Positions 2,193 to 28,082 of a DNA stretch of 28,490 bases are shown here, in pieces (within the stretch, counting starts at the first letter, position 1; each line of letters starts with the position of its first letter). The notes under the pieces are model-generated. The model was not told the origin of the DNA, made no database searches, and saw only the letters and a list, made by a program, of their open reading frames with translations. Source of the stretch: a virus (taxonomy: Duplodnaviria; Heunggongvirae; Uroviricota; Caudoviricetes); the IMG/VR virus record IMGVR_UViG_2585427739_000003; one strand, 5' to 3'. Both the position numbers and the translations under genes were made by a program.

Positions 2193-5100
2193 CCCGACGC
2201 GATGACTGCATAATTGACACAACCCTGCTGTCGATCAGATCCACCAGTCCCCTGGCTGAGCGCGCATCTATCTCGCCATTGCTCCCTTGATTCTGAATGC
2301 TGATGTGATACACGGGAGAATAAACAAATCCACCGCCACCATTCACATTTCCAATGGCCCTGACCCCAAGAGAGCCGTCCGCTGCCCGTGTCAGTGGCAT
2401 GATTGCTTCAGGCCCGGCCTCGCCCATCAACCCGGCACCTTTCGCAAAAGCAAAATACGTCGGTGTATCTACAATAGTGTTACTGTAAGCACTCAGATTT
2501 GCCGATGTGTAAACACCACCTTTTGCGTTTGCCACCGCCCCCGAAATCCATCCGCCGACCGTACCAAGCCACCCTCCGGCACCGGAGAGTGACTTCAGTC
2601 CGTTAACAATGGCCGCATTCATCAGAATTTTTGAAACTTCCTGGAGAATTGAACTCCCCCAGTTTCTCCAGTCCACAACATTTCCGGCCAGTGCATCGGA
2701 AATATTTGATACCAGCCCGTCCATAGTGGAAACGACAGCATCTGCCGCCTGCGAAGCATAATCGGTGGCACTGTCTGCCCAGTTGGTCAGCCCCTCCTGG
2801 AGTCCTGCATTCCAGTTATTACGTAAAGCATCGGCCTTTGCATAATAATCCTGCTGATCGCTGAGACGCTCTTCCAGATATTTTTTATTCAGTTCTTTCT
2901 CCTGTTTCCACAGGGCTTCTTCAATTTCTCCGGCCTGATACTGTCTCAGCAGCTCGTTATTTTTCTGCTCAAACTCATGCCGGATACTCCACATTTCCTG
3001 GAGTCGTTCACGCATCCGTGAGCCTTCACCATATCCCAGTAACTGCGCGTCGTTAGACGCCCGGGTACTGGCATTACTGTCCGCCAGGCTGCTTTCATAC
3101 GCAGCAAGCTGCTCACGAATCTTTTTCTGGTCGATGAGTGCTGCATTCTGCAAAAGCGTTTTTTTCTGCGCTTCTGACAGGGTTGATAATTCGCCCTGAC
3201 TGACCTGATATTTCATCTTAGCCAGTTCAGTATTCTGCCCTGCCAGTGCTATCTGTTCTTTTTGCTGTTTAATCAGCCGTTTATAAATATCTTCTGTTTT
3301 TTCCGCTTCGGTCTTTTTATGCGCTTTGGGTTTATTTGCCTGGTTATTTCGCCAGGCATCCAGTGAGTTATTGATATAATTCTGTCTGGCTGTCTGATAC
3401 GCCTCTCCCACAAAGCCAAGATCATCCGCAGCATAGCCCAGTCGAGCACGCTCACGCGCTTCCCCCTTAAGGCGGGACAGAGCCAGTTCGCGCTTGCTGT
3501 TATTCAGTGCGGTCTGCTGTTTATCATCCAGGGTTGCCTGTGGTAGCCGTAACGGTACATTCACCAGCCCCTGTCGCTGCTGAAGTAATTCATTACCAAG
3601 CCCAAGAAGGCGATTAAACTCGGTATGCTGCCCATTCATGATCAACAGGGACTGATACGCTTTGTTTTGTTCCGCCGCCTGTTGACGGATCAACGCAACC
3701 CGCCGCTCCTCCAGCCCGGCAAGCACATCCTGAATGGATTGCGCTTTGCCCTGCATTTGTGTGAGACGGGACTGTTCAACTGCCAGTTGATTTGTTGCTT
3801 CTGCAAGCCCTTCTGTGACTGTTTTTACCGACGTCATGTGGTTAATCATAAAACCGTTATCGGTTGTCCAGCCCGGGTTTGCCAGCACATACTGATAGCC
3901 AGCAATTTTTTCCTGTAAGGATTTAATCTTACTTTTCTGCTCGTCAATTAACCTGTTTTGCTCATCAAGTGCCTGCCGCGTCTTTTCCTCATTATCTGAC
4001 GCTTCAGGAAGCGACATTGCCGACGTTTTCTGGCGAATTTCGTCGATTGTTGCGGCATACTGGCGTGCAGATTCTCTGGCCTGCTCCTGATTCTGATACA
4101 TCGTGTACCAGGCCGTCGCCCCCAGCATGACGAGTCCCGGCACACCACCAACCAGCCCCAGCGCGCCACTTAATAAACGACTCCCCACTGACGTGACAGT
4201 ATTCAGCGTTGTCTGCGCCGCTGTTCTGGCCGCAATATTACGGGTAAGTGACGCCTGAGCAGCTGTCAGCTTCGCTTCTGCTGCGGCCTGCCTTTCGGTA
4301 CCGCGAGCAGCAACAACCGCCTGTTGCGCACGATAAACCGCCGCACGCGCCCTGGCGGTTGCTATCTGTGTCCCCCGAAGTTGCGCTTCAGCAAGAGCCA
4401 CTTCGTTTCTGGCTGCAGTAATTAATCCGGCAGTTGCAGATCCAGCAGACGACGCCATATTGCCAAAATATCGGGCTACCCCGACGGCAACCAGTGCGCC
4501 AGCTGCAGCAGCCACGGTATCAATATTGTCTGCAACACCATTCAGCACACCGGAGAGTGTCTTTGTCACTCCGCTTGCCTCGTTCGCACCACCAACCCAG
4601 GCCATAAAGGCGTTTTCAACTTTGGTTGCAGAGGATGAAACAGTATCAGGCATTGCTGCATATTCATCACGCAACGCCCCAAGCTGACTAATCAGTGCAG
4701 GAACAACCTTATCGGCGGTCAGTTTTCCGTTATCCGCCATGGCCTTCAGATCCTTACGGGCAACCCCCATTCCCGCAGCCAGCGCACGAATAACACGATC
4801 GCCGTTCTCATTCACCGAGTTAAACTCTTCACCGCGCAGCACTCCCTGCGCCAGTGCCTGACTGAACTGCATGATCACCGAACTGGCTTCTGCTGTACTG
4901 GCACCGGATAATTTCAGGCCCGTGGAGATCGCCTCGGTGACTTTCAGTACCTCCTCAGAACTGTAACCATACTCCCGCATGGAAGATGCAGAACGGGCAA
5001 AAAGGCTGGCGTTATCAGAAAACGCCGTCCCCGTTCTCTGGCTGATCGCCATTAATTCACGCTGTGATGCCTGAAAATCATCACTGGACTGTGAGGCCTG

Positions 5101-15687: not shown

Positions 15688-16202
15688 CAGGCTAATGCGC
15701 TTTCCTGGTCACGACGAATAACCTGTCCATAGCAGTTATTTGAACGTATGCGGCAATCGCGCCCACCATCTTTTATCCACCAGCGAATCGCCTCGCATGC
15801 GCCCTTACGATCACCGGCATTCAGCCGCTTATAAAACGTCGACGGGAAACACTTACCGGGGCCAATGTTATAGGGACAGAATGACGCTATACCCGCTTTT
15901 TGTGGTTCGGTCAGTGGTACTTTAATATTGCGCTCCACCCATGCCAGCGCCTTATCACGCTCAATGGCGTTGACCTGGTCGCATTTTTCCTTCGACAGTT
16001 TCATACCGGGAAAAACGGGTTTTCCATCCACCATCGTGGCCCCCCGACAGATGGTCCAGATGCCGGACCCATCGCGGTATGCCGTTGTGTGGTTACCTTC
16101 TTTTTCATCCAGAAACTGGTCGAGAATATCAGGCGCGGGCGCACCGACGGCAATCAGTGCCAGAACGGCAGCCGACAGGCCGTATCTGATTTTTGCGTTC
16201 AT
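15669..16202 (-). CDS. SAR endolysin (T4-type lysozyme with an N-terminal signal-arrest-release segment)
   Basis: N-terminal Gly/Ala-rich weakly hydrophobic segment ([17 protein letters not shown]) followed by an E...D...T catalytic triad motif ([17 protein letters not shown]). Confidence 0.85.
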
Positions 16203-16265
16203 GGATATTTATCAGGATTTATCGGTTTCTGCCCACGGACAGGTTTATCTGTTCCGGTCAGTGAC

Positions 16266-16616
16266 TTAAGGTTGTGATTCCGGAGGAGTCTTCAGAGAAC
16301 CAGTAATTCTTCCCGGTAGCTTTCCTTTGTAGGTTATCCATACATTCTGCGCCTCTAAAATTACGGGGCGCTTTTCCGGCGACTGCTCATCCCCTTCACA
16401 TAACCCGGCAGCAACATCCAGGAAGACCTGTCTGATGCTCCTTCTGGCTGCTGCCTCATAAAACTCCAGCGCGGCACCTTCAACACGGTCCAGCGAGATG
16501 TCCAGGTCAAAAATTTCACCGTCAAAGCGTTTTTTGTCCCGTAACGCTAAAGTTACCGTAACTTTATTCTCAAAATTGCGGATCCCTTTCACAATCAGTT
16601 CATAGTTTTGAGTCAT
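16266..16616 (-). CDS. Uncharacterised protein encoded between holin and endolysin (YdfR-like)
   Basis: 116-aa ORF in the same position as ydfR between holin and lysozyme in E. coli cryptic prophage Qin; family assignment is from memory. Confidence 0.5.
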   Translation of the reverse strand: MTQNYELIVKGIRNFENKVTVTLALRDKKRFDGEIFDLDISLDRVEGAALEFYEAAARRSIRQVFLDVAAGLCEGDEQSPEKRPVILEAQNVWITYKGKLPGRITGSLKTPPESQP

Positions 16617-16620
16617 TGAA

Positions 16621-16836
16621 TTACTCTCCCCGTGCCGCCTTACGACGGTCCTCTCTGATTTTGAAATACAGGTTAGTCAGATATGTCAGCAGCCCAAACA
16701 GCAGACTCCCCAGCACGCCTATTGCCGCCCACTGAGACGGGGAAACCCTGTCCAGCAACTGCAGGAACCAGTAGCCCGTTCCCACCGCTGACGTGGTGTA
16801 TGACACACCTGTTGTGATTTTTTCCATCTGGTCCAT
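16621..16836 (-). CDS. Class II pinholin (phage 21 S-like) with a dual-start motif
   Basis: [71 protein letters not shown] resembles S21. Met1 and Met4 give the holin/antiholin pair. Confidence 0.85.
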
Positions 16837-17143
16837 ACCCCGTCTCCCGTTATCCGGAAGCTGACAACAATAAAAAAGCCACCAGTTAACTACTGATGGC
16901 TCTGATAACTCATGCAAGCGTCTCAGACGATCCACTGACACTACCGGTGAGTTTAACGATACCTTCCATTTGACTGGCTCACTTTTTATGATGATGCCGG
17001 TACATTTATCTCCAGCACCAGACTTTCTATCTCAACGCCATACGTTGCATTTTTGGTAATATCCGTCAGCGTCAGTGCATTTAGTCCCACTGCCAGACTG
17101 TCCTTTATGGCCTAGAATGCCGGGCCAGTACGATGACGTAGTA

Positions 17144-17332
17144 TCACTCCGGCTCAGTTGCACCACTGACCACCACATCACCTTCTGCTGCAATCGCCTG
17201 CATCAGGGTATAAGGGGTTATGGCCACCGGACTACCAAACGGCTGCCAGCCCTCTTTCAGTTTATGTGTCAGCTTTTCCGCAAGATCTGACGGCGGCGCC
17301 GCCCTGACAACATCATAGTGTTTAAATGCCAT
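17144..17332 (-). CDS. Hypothetical small protein upstream of the holin
   Basis: ORF track 17144..17347; start placed at the internal Met MAFKHYDVV... Function unknown. Confidence 0.45.
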   Translation of the reverse strand: MAFKHYDVVRAAPPSDLAEKLTHKLKEGWQPFGSPVAITPYTLMQAIAAEGDVVVSGATEPE

Positions 17333-17591
17333 GGTTCTTTCCACCATCTGAAAAATAATTCTTTAAAATACCTGACATGTAATACAGAAAAAACACAAAA
17401 CCATACCTTAAATAAAAACCTGATTATCAAGCAGATATGCATGGATAAACTACAAGACGAGATATAAACCACCCTGTATTTAAATAAACAATAAACAACA
17501 TCAGAAAAATAATTCTGCTCTATGGTTTAATTCAAAAATATCATTTATACTTTTCAGAACATCACCAGCAAGGCATAAACAAGGAAAGTAA

Positions 17592-17927
17592 ATGAAGTGG
17601 ATTGTGATTGATACAGTTATCCAGCCATCATGCGGAATATCTTTTTCAGTCATATGGAGTAAAATAAAATTAATAATCTGGTATCAATCGGATGCTTTCT
17701 TACCTCCTGAAAGTATATTTACACTGACTCACACAGGCATCATGCTCAATAACAAAGTGCTACCTGTAACCATTTACAACGTAGTACCATTCAATAAAAC
17801 ATTCTGGAATTTAATCAAAAACAGCCAGGAATGCCCTACAAATACAGATAACGTAATGAATGAATGCTTTAATAACCGTTGCACTCTGCAAATATGTCCT
17901 TATGGACTAAAACAACAAAGTCCATAA
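17592..17927 (+). CDS. Hypothetical protein in an AT-rich cargo island, Cys-rich C-terminus
   Basis: 111-aa ORF with AAGGAAAG ribosome-binding site before the ATG, AT-rich upstream region with promoter-like hexamers, and a perfect hairpin downstream. It is transcribed against the late operon. Confidence 0.5.
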
Positions 17928-18374
17928 GGAGTTTACTCACATCTGACAAAATCAATATAAACAGCCCCTCCGGAGAGGGGCTGGAGAGTGGCGCTATGTG
18001 CCATTGCATGGTGCCGGGTGCCTCCCGGTGAATTCAGTACCAGCACCTGAATTCGCGATTATCCCATATACCTACTCGCTGATTGCCCCTCCGCACAGGG
18101 GGATTCACCATGCCAGTTTCTTTTAACAAACTCCCCGCAAACCAGACAACAGTCAACCGCCTGAATTGTGAAGTATTTAAAAATTTCTCCCGCTAACTGA
18201 TACCCGGCTAACAGTCTGGCGTTTTCTTTTTCAGCAACGGGAAAGCAACAACCACCACCCCCGCCACCAGCACACCGTCAGCCAGCACTGACATTATCCG
18301 GCTGCTGCAATGCCACTCACAAAAACAGTAAGCAATCACTTTTTACCGTAACAAGTGATAATCCAGATATGTAT

Positions 18375-18728
18375 CTACCCCAGATGAGTAATCCGAAGTT
18401 CATCCATACCACAGGTACTGGCTATTCTGTTGTACTCCTGAACAAGAGCAAATAATTCTGAATTAGCAACCATGAACTCATCGCAAACCCTCTGTATAGC
18501 ATCACTATTCAGAATAATAACGTCTCTTCCCGAAAGACGATCAGGAGTACAGAACAAAACTGTCAAACGGCTGAAGGCCTTTGCTCGTCCTGCATTGACT
18601 ATATCAATACGCTGCCTAAGGATGAAACACCCCGACGCCTCATCAATATTCACTCTACCCACACCATATGAATGATAAATATTTAATGCTGAAAAAACCA
18701 TTAGACCGTATAACAAACACTCAATCAA
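18375..18728 (-). CDS. Hypothetical protein (weak gene model)
   Basis: 117-aa ORF with a TTG start and no convincing ribosome-binding site, in the position occupied by stx in Stx phages. Confidence 0.25.
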   Translation of the reverse strand: MIECLLYGLMVFSALNIYHSYGVGRVNIDEASGCFILRQRIDIVNAGRAKAFSRLTVLFCTPDRLSGRDVIILNSDAIQRVCDEFMVANSELFALVQEYNRIASTCGMDELRITHLG

Positions 18729-18841
18729 TACTTAACAGAACTTTTATTTTTGACAAACATAAAATATTTTCAACAATATCCTGAGCCAGGTATATTTCAG
18801 TATAAGGCTCTGCCGGAAGGAATCTGGAAGAATGAATATAG

Positions 18842-18915
18842 CGCGCTGTACTGGATTCGAACCAGTGACCGATTGCTTAGAAGGCAATTGCTCTGTCCGG
18901 CTGAGCTAACAACGC
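18842..18915 (-). tRNA. tRNA-Arg (anticodon UCU), 3' CCA not encoded
   Basis: Hand-folded cloverleaf: 7-bp acceptor stem GCGTTGT/ACAGCGC, GTTCGAATCC T-arm, anticodon loop CTTCTAA. Resembles the argN/argO tRNAs of lambdoid Stx phages. Confidence 0.75.
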
Positions 18916-19015
18916 TGAATACCGATAATGGACCGCCATCGGGGACCCGCCCCCGCACCAACAACCCTGTTATCGTGTCGTCTGCTCTTCCTGATAAGCT
19001 AATGGCGGTTTGTGA

Positions 19016-19091
19016 TGGTGGCCCTTGCTGGATTTGAACCAGCGACCTGGCGATTATGAGTCGCTCGCTCTCACCACTGAGCTAAAGGGCC
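19016..19091 (-). tRNA. tRNA-Ile2-like (anticodon CAU), with encoded CCA
   Basis: GGCCCTTTAGCTCAGTGGTGAGAGCGAGCGACTCATAATCGCC...GGTTCAAATCC...GGGCCACCA resembles E. coli tRNA-Ile2 (ileX) and the ileZ tRNA of Stx phages. Confidence 0.8.
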
Positions 19092-19120
19092 GGGAGCAGA
19101 ATAATAACGGTCCGTAATTA

Positions 19121-19147
19121 ATTCCGCAATAAAAAACCCGCTCGGCG
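19121..19147 (-). terminator. Candidate tR' terminator downstream of the late promoter
   Basis: Minus strand reads AACCCGCCGCCGAGCGGGTT followed by TTTTTTATT, about 90 nt downstream of the Q stop. Confidence 0.5.
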
Positions 19148-19149
19148 GC

Positions 19150-28024: not shown

Positions 28025-28082
28025 TTTCTGGTGACGTTTGGCGGTATCAGTTTTACTCCGTGACTGCTCTGCCGCCGTTTTT
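28025..28082 (+). ncRNA. dicF: DicF-like small RNA (division-inhibiting antisense sRNA)
   Basis: TTTCTGGTGACGTTTGGCGGTATCAGTTTTACTCCGTGACTGCTCTGCCGCCGTTTTT matches the DicF sequence as I recall it, ends in a hairpin plus T-run, and lies just upstream of dicB after a 340-bp non-coding leader. Confidence 0.7.

Follow-up and report, generated by a model that had tools for sequence, protein, structure and literature searches.

A full-length STnc100-type small RNA gene as the very likely identity of a hairpin run behind the cargo slot of a lambdoid prophage

Which genetic element underlies a run of perfect inverted repeats in the late region of a lambdoid prophage, at the place where Stx2 phages carry their toxin genes? 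The question is raised by the IMG/VR virus record IMGVR_UViG_2585427739_000003, a stretch of 28,490 nucleotides (nt) that is referred to below, in its full length, as the window. A preliminary description had listed four consecutive hairpins at about 17953-18100 and an adjacent weak open reading frame (ORF), had stated that the region is not explained by any annotated gene, and had offered three interpretations: a terminator or insulator cascade, a structured RNA, or the remains of deleted cargo. All four hairpins are present at these positions, and it is the structured RNA that has held up, while the insulator cascade and the deletion scar have not. A scan of all Rfam families matched 17953-18142 of the minus strand to the STnc100 family (RF02076) over the full model (1-206 of 206), with 131.4 bits against a gathering threshold of 47 (E = 2e-30), and the proposed structure has covariation support. 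The hairpin run is thus very probably an STnc100-family small RNA (sRNA) gene on the minus strand, which is the strand of the late operon. This strand, a variable further hairpin (H2) and an 8-bp helix (P1) that closes the core of the RNA had escaped the preliminary description.

An STnc100 gene at the usual place of the family

The published quantitative PCR primers for STnc100, which were designed in a study of outer membrane vesicles (PMC12370729), both match the window exactly and bracket 18020-18112, which equals the reported 93-bp amplicon. The gene lies between the Q/tRNA region and the lysis cassette. The order tRNAs, STnc100, lysis genes was found in all 10 related loci that were scanned, with 1-4 copies per locus. 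The window thus contains a full-length and structurally constrained copy at the usual place of the family, directly behind a swappable cargo slot. A copy of this kind is already known and is ordinary for prophages of this type: STnc100 is in Rfam, has been detected experimentally in enterohaemorrhagic and enteropathogenic Escherichia coli (EHEC and EPEC), and needs no pursuit as a new find. In some related prophages STnc100 occurs in tandem, as two to four copies that belong to different variants and are about 230-470 nt apart (2265-3380 of locus L126; two copies each in L129, L139 and L182).

Several relatives are known from experiments. Tree et al. (2014; PMC4104026) applied Hfq-RNA crosslinking to E. 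coli O157 Sakai and reported that the "moron" site, which lies downstream of pR', holds sRNA genes in eight lambdoid prophages. EcOnc27 of the Stx2 phage Sp5 is located just 3' of stx2B; its 247-nt form is destabilised without Hfq, and its northern bands of about 235 and 247 nt as well as the Hfq crosslinking cluster reach further upstream (PMC4104026). EcOnc27 (sRNA103 in EDL933) is equated with the Infernal prediction STnc100 in a 2025 study, in which variants in the STnc100 copy behind stx2 were statistical predictors of haemolytic uraemic syndrome (HUS; PMC12711010). Eleven STnc100 copies are present in EDL933, one of which was confirmed by northern blot (PMC5331693). A discrete Hfq-associated transcript is known for the homologues EcOnc27 and one EDL933 copy. 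The sRNA PasD is Hfq-dependent and has many partners in RIL-seq, where interacting RNAs are ligated and sequenced (PMC8550237); PasD1 and PasD2 of EPEC, as a 2026 preprint concludes, have an ancestor in common with STnc100 but differ in their seeds (bioRxiv 10.64898/2026.05.13.724894).

Fold and covariation

The RNA is made up of the following elements:

18006..18113, minus strand: multi-branched core closed by helix P1, in which GCAUGGUG (18113-18106) pairs with CACCAUGC (18013-18006) over 8 bp; in the minimum-free-energy (MFE) and the centroid fold
18086..18101, minus strand: hairpin H1, CCCCU(GUGCGG)AGGGG, arms CCCCT/AGGGG at 18086-18090/18097-18101; in the MFE fold; listed in the preliminary description as CCCCT...GGGGG
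18055..18079, minus strand: hairpin H2 (GCGA...UCGC), variable, rich in insertions and deletions (indels), different between variants
18030..18054, minus strand: hairpin H3, GAAUUCAG(9 nt)CUGAAUUC, a perfect 8-bp inverted repeat; on the plus strand GAATTCAG/CTGAATTC at 18030-18037/18047-18054, with a 9-nt loop
18014..18028, minus strand: hairpin H4, CCGGG(AGGCA)CCCGG, arms at 18014-18018/18024-18028; in the MFE fold
17984..18005, minus strand: variable linker from P1 to the terminator, AAUGGCACAUAGCGCCACUCUCC; candidate seed or target-pairing region
17947..17983, minus strand: intrinsic terminator of the sRNA, CAGCCCCUC UCCG GAGGGGCUG and then the tail UUUAUAUUGAUUUUG; on the plus strand CAGCCCCTC/GAGGGGCTG at 17962-17970/17975-17983, 9 bp, perfect, with a 4-nt loop

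The 164-nt stretch 18113-17950 of the minus strand folds with -70 kcal/mol, compared to -56.1 +/- 4.2 kcal/mol for shuffled sequences (z = -3.3), and none of 200 shuffles folded as well. MFE and centroid structures are identical and reproduce the Rfam consensus, i.e. a closing helix around hairpins, followed by the terminator. The architecture of the RNA is therefore an 8-bp helix around three to four hairpins, a variable linker and an intrinsic terminator.

Viral contigs of IMG/VR were scanned with the 15-mer CATGGTGAATCCCCC, which yielded 120 prophage loci; together with two annotated loci, these gave an alignment of 85 distinct copies, on which the pairing figures below are based. The search pattern fixes the 5' arms of P1 and H1 and thus introduces a bias, and P1 was rechecked in copies that lack the pattern. 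For a 596-Gb collection of genome contigs, the 15-mer proved too short and returned almost only chance matches from unrelated phyla. Standard pairs occupy 88% of the pair cells in the alignment; sliding the partners by 1-3 columns reduces this share to 40-50%. Double changes were seen at 28 pairs versus 17.5 +/- 1.6 in shuffles, a value that none of 500 shuffles reached.

The support differs between the elements. P1 is paired in 99% of cells, and outside the pattern-selected set it occurs in the compensatory variants GCAUAGUG/CACUAUGC, GCGUGGUG/CACCACGC and AUAUGGCG/CGCCAUAU. In H3 (98.2% paired), six of the eight pairs show double changes, with GAAUUCAG/CUGAAUUC being replaced by GGGUUCGG/CCGAACUC and GGAUUCUG/CAGAAUUC in other variants. 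Hairpin H1 (96.5% paired) is almost invariant in sequence, loop included, and its 5' arm carries no covariation information because the search pattern fixes it. The stem and loop of H4 are likewise nearly invariant (99.1% paired, G-U variants only). Such invariance of H1 and H4, loops included, suggests a constraint on the sequence itself. H2 is weakly supported, with 70-88% paired cells in a part where the alignment is unreliable. An outer helix GGGGAGU/ACUCUCC and a small GGC/GCC hairpin are in the MFE fold but are paired in 56-73% of cells, and they are not claimed here. At 18053, in the second pair of H3, the minus-strand RNA of the window has an A where nearly all copies have a G (GCGAAUUCAG vs GCGGAUUCAG), so that a G-U pair becomes A-U; this A creates two arms with EcoRI sites, which makes H3 conspicuous.

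Candidate promoter and 5' end

Two features upstream of P1 bear on the start of the RNA:

18120..18149, minus strand: predicted promoter of a short form, -35 TTGTCT at 18149-18144, 18-nt spacer, extended -10 TGtTAAAAG at 18128-18120, +1 at G18113
18161..18186, minus strand: conserved upstream block UUUUUAAAU-N4-UCACAAUUCAG, marks where the conserved sRNA module has its left boundary and where a longer form may start

From the sequence, we predict that the short form starts at G18113, which would give an RNA of about 155-165 nt. In the aligned copies, the region upstream of P1 consists of a conserved block GTTGACnGTTGTCTG, about 12 variable nt, the nearly invariant TTTGTTAAAA, another 6-8 variable nt and GCATGGTG. 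The published 5' end of PasD1 (NC_011601 position 1060260) is the equivalent G of GCAUGGUG and is preceded by the arrangement TTGACT-18-TAAAAA-7. The 235- and 247-nt bands of EcOnc27 are longer than the Rfam model, and their additional upstream reach corresponds to the block 18186-18161 in the window, which is kept behind different cargoes. Given these bands and the fact that homology to other prophages resumes within the block (18171-18183), a longer form of about 215 nt would also be possible. TTGACT at 18156-18151 was considered as an alternative -35 element; with a 17-nt spacer it leads to a poor and unconserved -10 (GAGTTT), and it was retained as a mere alternative.

Terminator and linker

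The terminator scan flags 17983-17962, with nine pairs, seven of them G-C, a loop of 4 and the tail UUUAUAUUGA. In the relatives, seven of eight pairs of this stem show double changes. H1, H3 and H4 are not followed by a U-tract on either strand. A further terminator-like site at 18539-18521 lies within a coding region and was treated as chance.

The linker at 17984-18005 is the most variable segment among the copies. Recombination breakpoints are located at 18005 in comparisons with the loci L164, L166 and L182, i.e. at the 5' edge of the linker, and the published seed of PasD, UGUGAG, is found in the equivalent segment. For these reasons the linker is the best seed candidate, and by analogy it may serve as the seed in the window copy. 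In the alignment, the Sp5-type copies have a linker to which the northern probe for EcOnc27 is complementary.

The cargo slot and its genes

Lambdoid phages carry morons, which are cargo cassettes downstream of pR', such as stx, or lom and bor in lambda. The corresponding features of the window are:

18172..18830, minus strand: cargo (moron) slot, flanked by the tRNA cluster and the sRNA module, with a 92-codon gene and a DUF3927 gene here and stx2AB in Stx2 phages
18375..18653, minus strand: conserved 92-codon gene, GTG start at 18653; the last 92 codons of a 117-amino-acid (aa) ORF
18208..18339, minus strand: DUF3927 gene, 43 aa, GTG start, PF13064 with 95.6 bits against a gathering threshold of 25 (E = 1.7e-27); directly upstream of the sRNA

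In a blastn comparison with the Stx2a phage L002 (LC567834), homology breaks off at 18831 and sets in again at 18171; the gap is occupied by stx2A-stx2B in that phage. The statement of the preliminary description that the ORF sits where stx would be expected was hence correct to within about 10 bases. Compared with the cargo-less loci L129 and L166, homology is lost at 18826 and regained at 18183; in these relatives, about 23 nt separate the two points. Relative to them, the window contains an insertion of about 0.65 kb between conserved modules of the late operon, as is characteristic of a moron. A search for a moron promoter found a sigma-70-like site at 18773-18746 that agrees at 9 of 12 positions; the region holds 7 such sites, with 6.5 expected by chance. 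The distance from the last tRNA to P1, determined for 96 copies, falls into discrete classes:

about 106 nt: empty slot, 25 loci
295-380 nt
about 570 nt: second copy of a tandem
727-729 nt: cassette as in the window, unchanged in about 20 loci
about 800 nt
860-880 nt
1436-1455 nt: stx-sized

No similarity to stx2A or stx2B was detected, at the protein or DNA level, in the slot or anywhere else in the window (the best tblastn hit, with E = 0.35, is outside the slot), and blastn of the cassette against the stx cassette gave a 12-nt chance match only. As there is no trace of stx, the 0.65-kb cassette is better understood as alternative cargo than as a deletion scar.

The ORF at 18375..18728 (minus strand, 117 aa, TTG start) exists as described. 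Its characterization as weak applies to the TTG start and the first 25 codons, which are unconserved; the remaining 92 codons are a real conserved gene. That a ribosome-binding site is missing was also nearly right, for there is a weak G-rich tract, GGUGUGGGU, 4-12 nt upstream of the GTG. The 92-codon gene matches PHROG 2873 (phrog_2873, E = 6.6e-70). Its homologue in locus L246 (68% nucleotide identity) has the same GTG start and no indels; the differences are distributed 24/22/43 over the three codon positions, and dN/dS is 0.29/1.10 (= 0.26; Fisher p = 2e-6). Judged by this pattern, the gene is clearly under purifying selection. An exhaustive profile search brought up relatives of 91-95 residues, down to 33% identity, that have a motif in common. 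AlphaFold2 models the protein as a two-helix hairpin with a short beta turn (pLDDT 84.8). The protein has no match in Pfam, in NCBIfam or in a PDB sequence search, and Foldseek of the model against PDB returned generic helical hairpins only (E at least 0.28). A diverged homologue of the 92-aa protein is encoded directly downstream of a gene for an AraC-family regulator (241 aa), with STnc100-type copies following (L246, 2186-3279; also L243, L244, L245 and L247), and in some of these loci an IS3-family transposase is inserted in front of the homologue. Ends of DUF3927-type genes precede many STnc100 copies.

Genomic context and annotation

The window carries a lambdoid prophage whose late genes lie on the minus strand, in the order Q, a tR'-like terminator, two phage tRNAs, the region described above, a DUF1737 gene, a P21-type holin gene, a YdfR-family gene, lysozyme and Rz. 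The neighbouring features are:

19235-20056, minus strand: Q antiterminator (PF03589)
18841-19091, minus strand: pair of phage tRNAs, upstream bound of the slot; tRNA-Arg UCU at 18841-18915 and a CAU-anticodon tRNA at 19016-19091
17592-17927, plus strand: convergent gene for an IraM-family anti-adapter (NF007393, 162 bits against a cut-off of 121), downstream bound of the sRNA
16621-16941, minus strand: P21-type holin
16266-16616, minus strand: YdfR-family gene

ARAGORN assigns the tRNA at 19016-19091 to Met (anticodon CAT), and the Prokaryotic Genome Annotation Pipeline (PGAP) annotates the identical gene as tRNA-Ile. It fits the ileZ-type tRNA of Stx phages, in which the CAU anticodon is modified and reads AUA. 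Just downstream of Q, at 19154-19135 on the minus strand, there is a terminator-like (tR'-like) hairpin with the stem AACCCGC/GCGGGTT, followed by TTTTATTG. A Trp_leader-like match at 19128-19234 (minus strand, 25.5 bits against a threshold of 41) was treated as chance. This interval is the expected place of pR' and tR', and a short RNA of the StxS/6S-like type may therefore be made there.

The iraM gene is convergent to the sRNA in the Stx2a phage L002 as well. Across the stop codon of the iraM-like gene in the window, at 17897-17930, there is a perfect 12-bp inverted repeat, TCCTTATGGACT / AGTCCATAAGGA, with a 10-nt loop and no U-tract after it on either strand. Since the plus strand between iraM and the sRNA is without a terminator, read-through from iraM would be antisense to STnc100. 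Two other Rfam sRNAs were found in the window, the sok antitoxin RNA at 22087-22258 (minus strand, 106.7 bits) and DicF at 28026-28077 (plus strand, 72.5 bits). Their presence indicates that the prophage backbone is Qin/Kim-like and that its Rfam sRNA genes number at least three.

Many E. coli chromosomes carry the 941 bp around the sRNA and its cargo at 99.8-99.9% identity, and in hundreds of sequenced E. coli genomes the identity is 99-100%. Of 5426 complete genomes, 2860 match some part of this region, and 1184 genomes (E. coli) contain 80% of it or more. At an identical locus (L001), the RefSeq/PGAP annotation contains the DUF3927 gene (18208-18339) and a dubious plus-strand pseudogene across the RNA, named "hypothetical protein" (2599-2724 of L001, about 17998-18123 of the window); neither the sRNA nor the conserved 92-codon gene is called. 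The remark that no annotated gene explains the region is accordingly true for the sRNA and the ORF but not for the DUF3927 gene and the pseudogene. The omission of the sRNA and the 92-codon gene is probably a systematic gap that affects many E. coli genomes with this locus.

Proposed function and alternative explanations

By analogy with EcOnc27/sRNA103 and PasD, the gene would give rise in lysogens to a discrete, Hfq-bound transcript of about 160-215 nt from its own promoter. This RNA would be trans-acting and would pair with mRNAs of the host and the prophage, and the linker in front of the terminator would be the likeliest seed. From the anatomy of the locus, the terminator would also close the upstream cassette of 92-codon gene and DUF3927 gene and be read through by Q-modified late transcription; transcription without Q modification could then not reach the lysis genes. 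For the window copy, we infer Hfq dependence, 5' end, seed and targets from these homologues.

Several points weigh against this interpretation. The -10 element TAAAAG is without the canonical final T, and the promoter is absent from the list of a generic promoter scan. Two different 5' ends fit the data on homologues: one is given by the PasD1 start at P1, the other by the EcOnc27 bands (about 235 and 247 nt). The invariance of H1 and H4 provides no covariation evidence for or against their pairing. The U-tract is interrupted (UUUAUAUUGAUUUUG) and weaker than the UUUCUU or UUUUUU that is usual in the relatives, so that termination and Hfq binding could both drop. No direct target has been demonstrated for any STnc100 variant; the effects described for fimZ and espA are those of overexpression. 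Expression of the window copy in its host is itself presumed by analogy.

The reading of the hairpins as a terminator or insulator cascade, in which one hairpin after another halts transcripts in the interval that separates the late operon from the opposing iraM gene, is very improbable. It was right about the last hairpin (17983-17962), which is terminator-like and sits 35 nt from the end of convergent iraM, and in lambdoid phages moron cassettes classically end in a terminator (cited in PMC4104026). However, a U-rich tail follows this one hairpin only; the other three are internal stems of one folded RNA, enclosed by the covarying 8-bp helix, and the unit as a whole is a full-length match to an sRNA family. 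With a single terminator-like hairpin there is no insulator cascade, and since no hairpin is followed by a U-tract on the plus strand, none of them would stop iraM transcripts. Even less credible is a scar left by the deletion of stx or other cargo, with the ORF and the hairpins as decaying remnants. The slot is exactly that of stx2AB in Stx2a phages and the ORF is not called by PGAP, but beside the complete lack of stx2A/stx2B similarity, the cassette is intact: the 92-codon gene bears the marks of purifying selection, its full-length relatives go down to 33% identity, the DUF3927 gene is complete, and the sRNA spans the whole Rfam model. The 727-729-nt cassette is moreover unchanged in about 20 other loci, in line with the wide occurrence of the region in E. 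coli noted above.

A mainly cis-acting role on the late transcript, as a processing or stability element or as a binding site for a phage or host protein with H1 and H4 as the recognition elements, has a small probability. It would account for the near-invariance of H1 and H4 with their loops next to an H3 and a terminator that covary freely, which suggests sequence-specific recognition and not mere structure; the element also always precedes the lysis genes within the Q-dependent late operon and occurs in up to four tandem copies. Yet the homologues accumulate in uninduced lysogens as discrete RNAs that are bound by Hfq and enter into chimeras with many mRNAs. The core is preceded by a conserved promoter-like arrangement, and no result obtained here points to a partner protein. 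Ribosome footprints on some of the EDL933 STnc100 copies in one Ribo-seq study (PMC5331693) and the PGAP pseudo-CDS across the RNA could indicate a small peptide, encoded either by a 25-codon minus-strand ORF (AUG in GCAUGG) or by the 42-codon plus-strand ORF of the pseudogene. Translated from the common AUG, though, the 85 copies give 11 to more than 69 residues and agree in the first nine codons only, which are the invariant RNA core, and indels in H2 shift the frame; the probability of this explanation is practically negligible.

Implications

A trans-acting sRNA thus remains the preferred interpretation, and the locus invites a broader one, which we put forward as a speculation that is more likely wrong than right. 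STnc100-type RNAs may be a modular platform that is diversified by recombination, with a core held invariant via a specific partner and the linker as a swappable seed that is exchanged at the 3' edge of P1 (18005); the 92-aa gene, the DUF3927 gene and the sRNA would together form a lysogenic-conversion cassette that replaces stx in non-toxigenic prophages. This view is partly anticipated in print by the common ancestor and the different seeds of PasD and STnc100. STnc100 variants are statistically tied to the risk of HUS, and the conserved core and the variable linker are worth testing in any variant. The cargo slot has sharp, reusable boundaries and may be empty or hold this cassette, other cargo or stx2AB, which should aid comparisons of Stx and non-Stx prophages. 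In the RefSeq (PGAP) annotation, an sRNA and a small gene that is clearly under purifying selection are omitted.

Comparison with known systems

The cassette in the window resembles other lambdoid morons in being an insertion relative to cargo-less relatives, in its place in the late operon and in ending at a terminator. It differs from them in that the only candidate for a promoter of its own (18773-18746) scores no better than chance.

The anti-sRNAs AsxR and AgvB (Tree et al. 2014) are the convergent partners of EcOnc27-type RNAs. Many relatives carry their conserved 3' region immediately after the terminator of STnc100, in the opposite orientation, where the alignment shows it as the reverse complement of AGTATCTCATGCTATTGCCCGAACCCATTCGGGCATTTT. 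This 3' region (about 42 nt, …UUGCCCGAACCCAYUCGGGC UUUU) has no match in the window at up to 3 mismatches, and there is no Rfam match to RF02702 or RF02703 (AsxR/AgvB) in 16000-20500 at E <= 1. The convergent neighbour in the window is instead the iraM-like protein gene.

PasD1 and PasD2 of EPEC E2348/69 (Pearl Mizrahi et al. 2021; Zhu, Shabalina and Storz 2026) have the 5' scaffold GCAUGGUGAAUCC... and the H3-like and H4-like hairpins in common with the window copy, and PasD1 also has a promoter-like layout and a DUF3927 gene directly upstream. The 3' module of PasD (UGUGAG seed and CUGGCUGCGCAUGGCGCGGCC terminator) is absent from the window by alignment, so that only the 5' scaffold is common to both. 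On the STnc100 model, PasD1 scores 37.7 bits, which is below the cut-off, and the window copy 131. An assignment of the window copy to PasD was thus ruled out, and it is clearly an STnc100.

A close parallel is EcOnc27/sRNA103 of Sp5 and 933W. Compared with it, the window copy is different in the H2 region and in the linker before the terminator (about 71% DNA identity to the copy of Stx2a phages); its cargo is the 92-codon gene and the DUF3927 gene rather than stx2AB, its U-tail is weaker, and it has no convergent anti-sRNA. The window copy is a full RF02076 match and has the same closing helix, the same hairpins H1, H3 and H4 and the same type of terminator, and both are encoded on the same strand, after Q and the phage tRNAs, before the lysis genes and directly behind the cargo slot.

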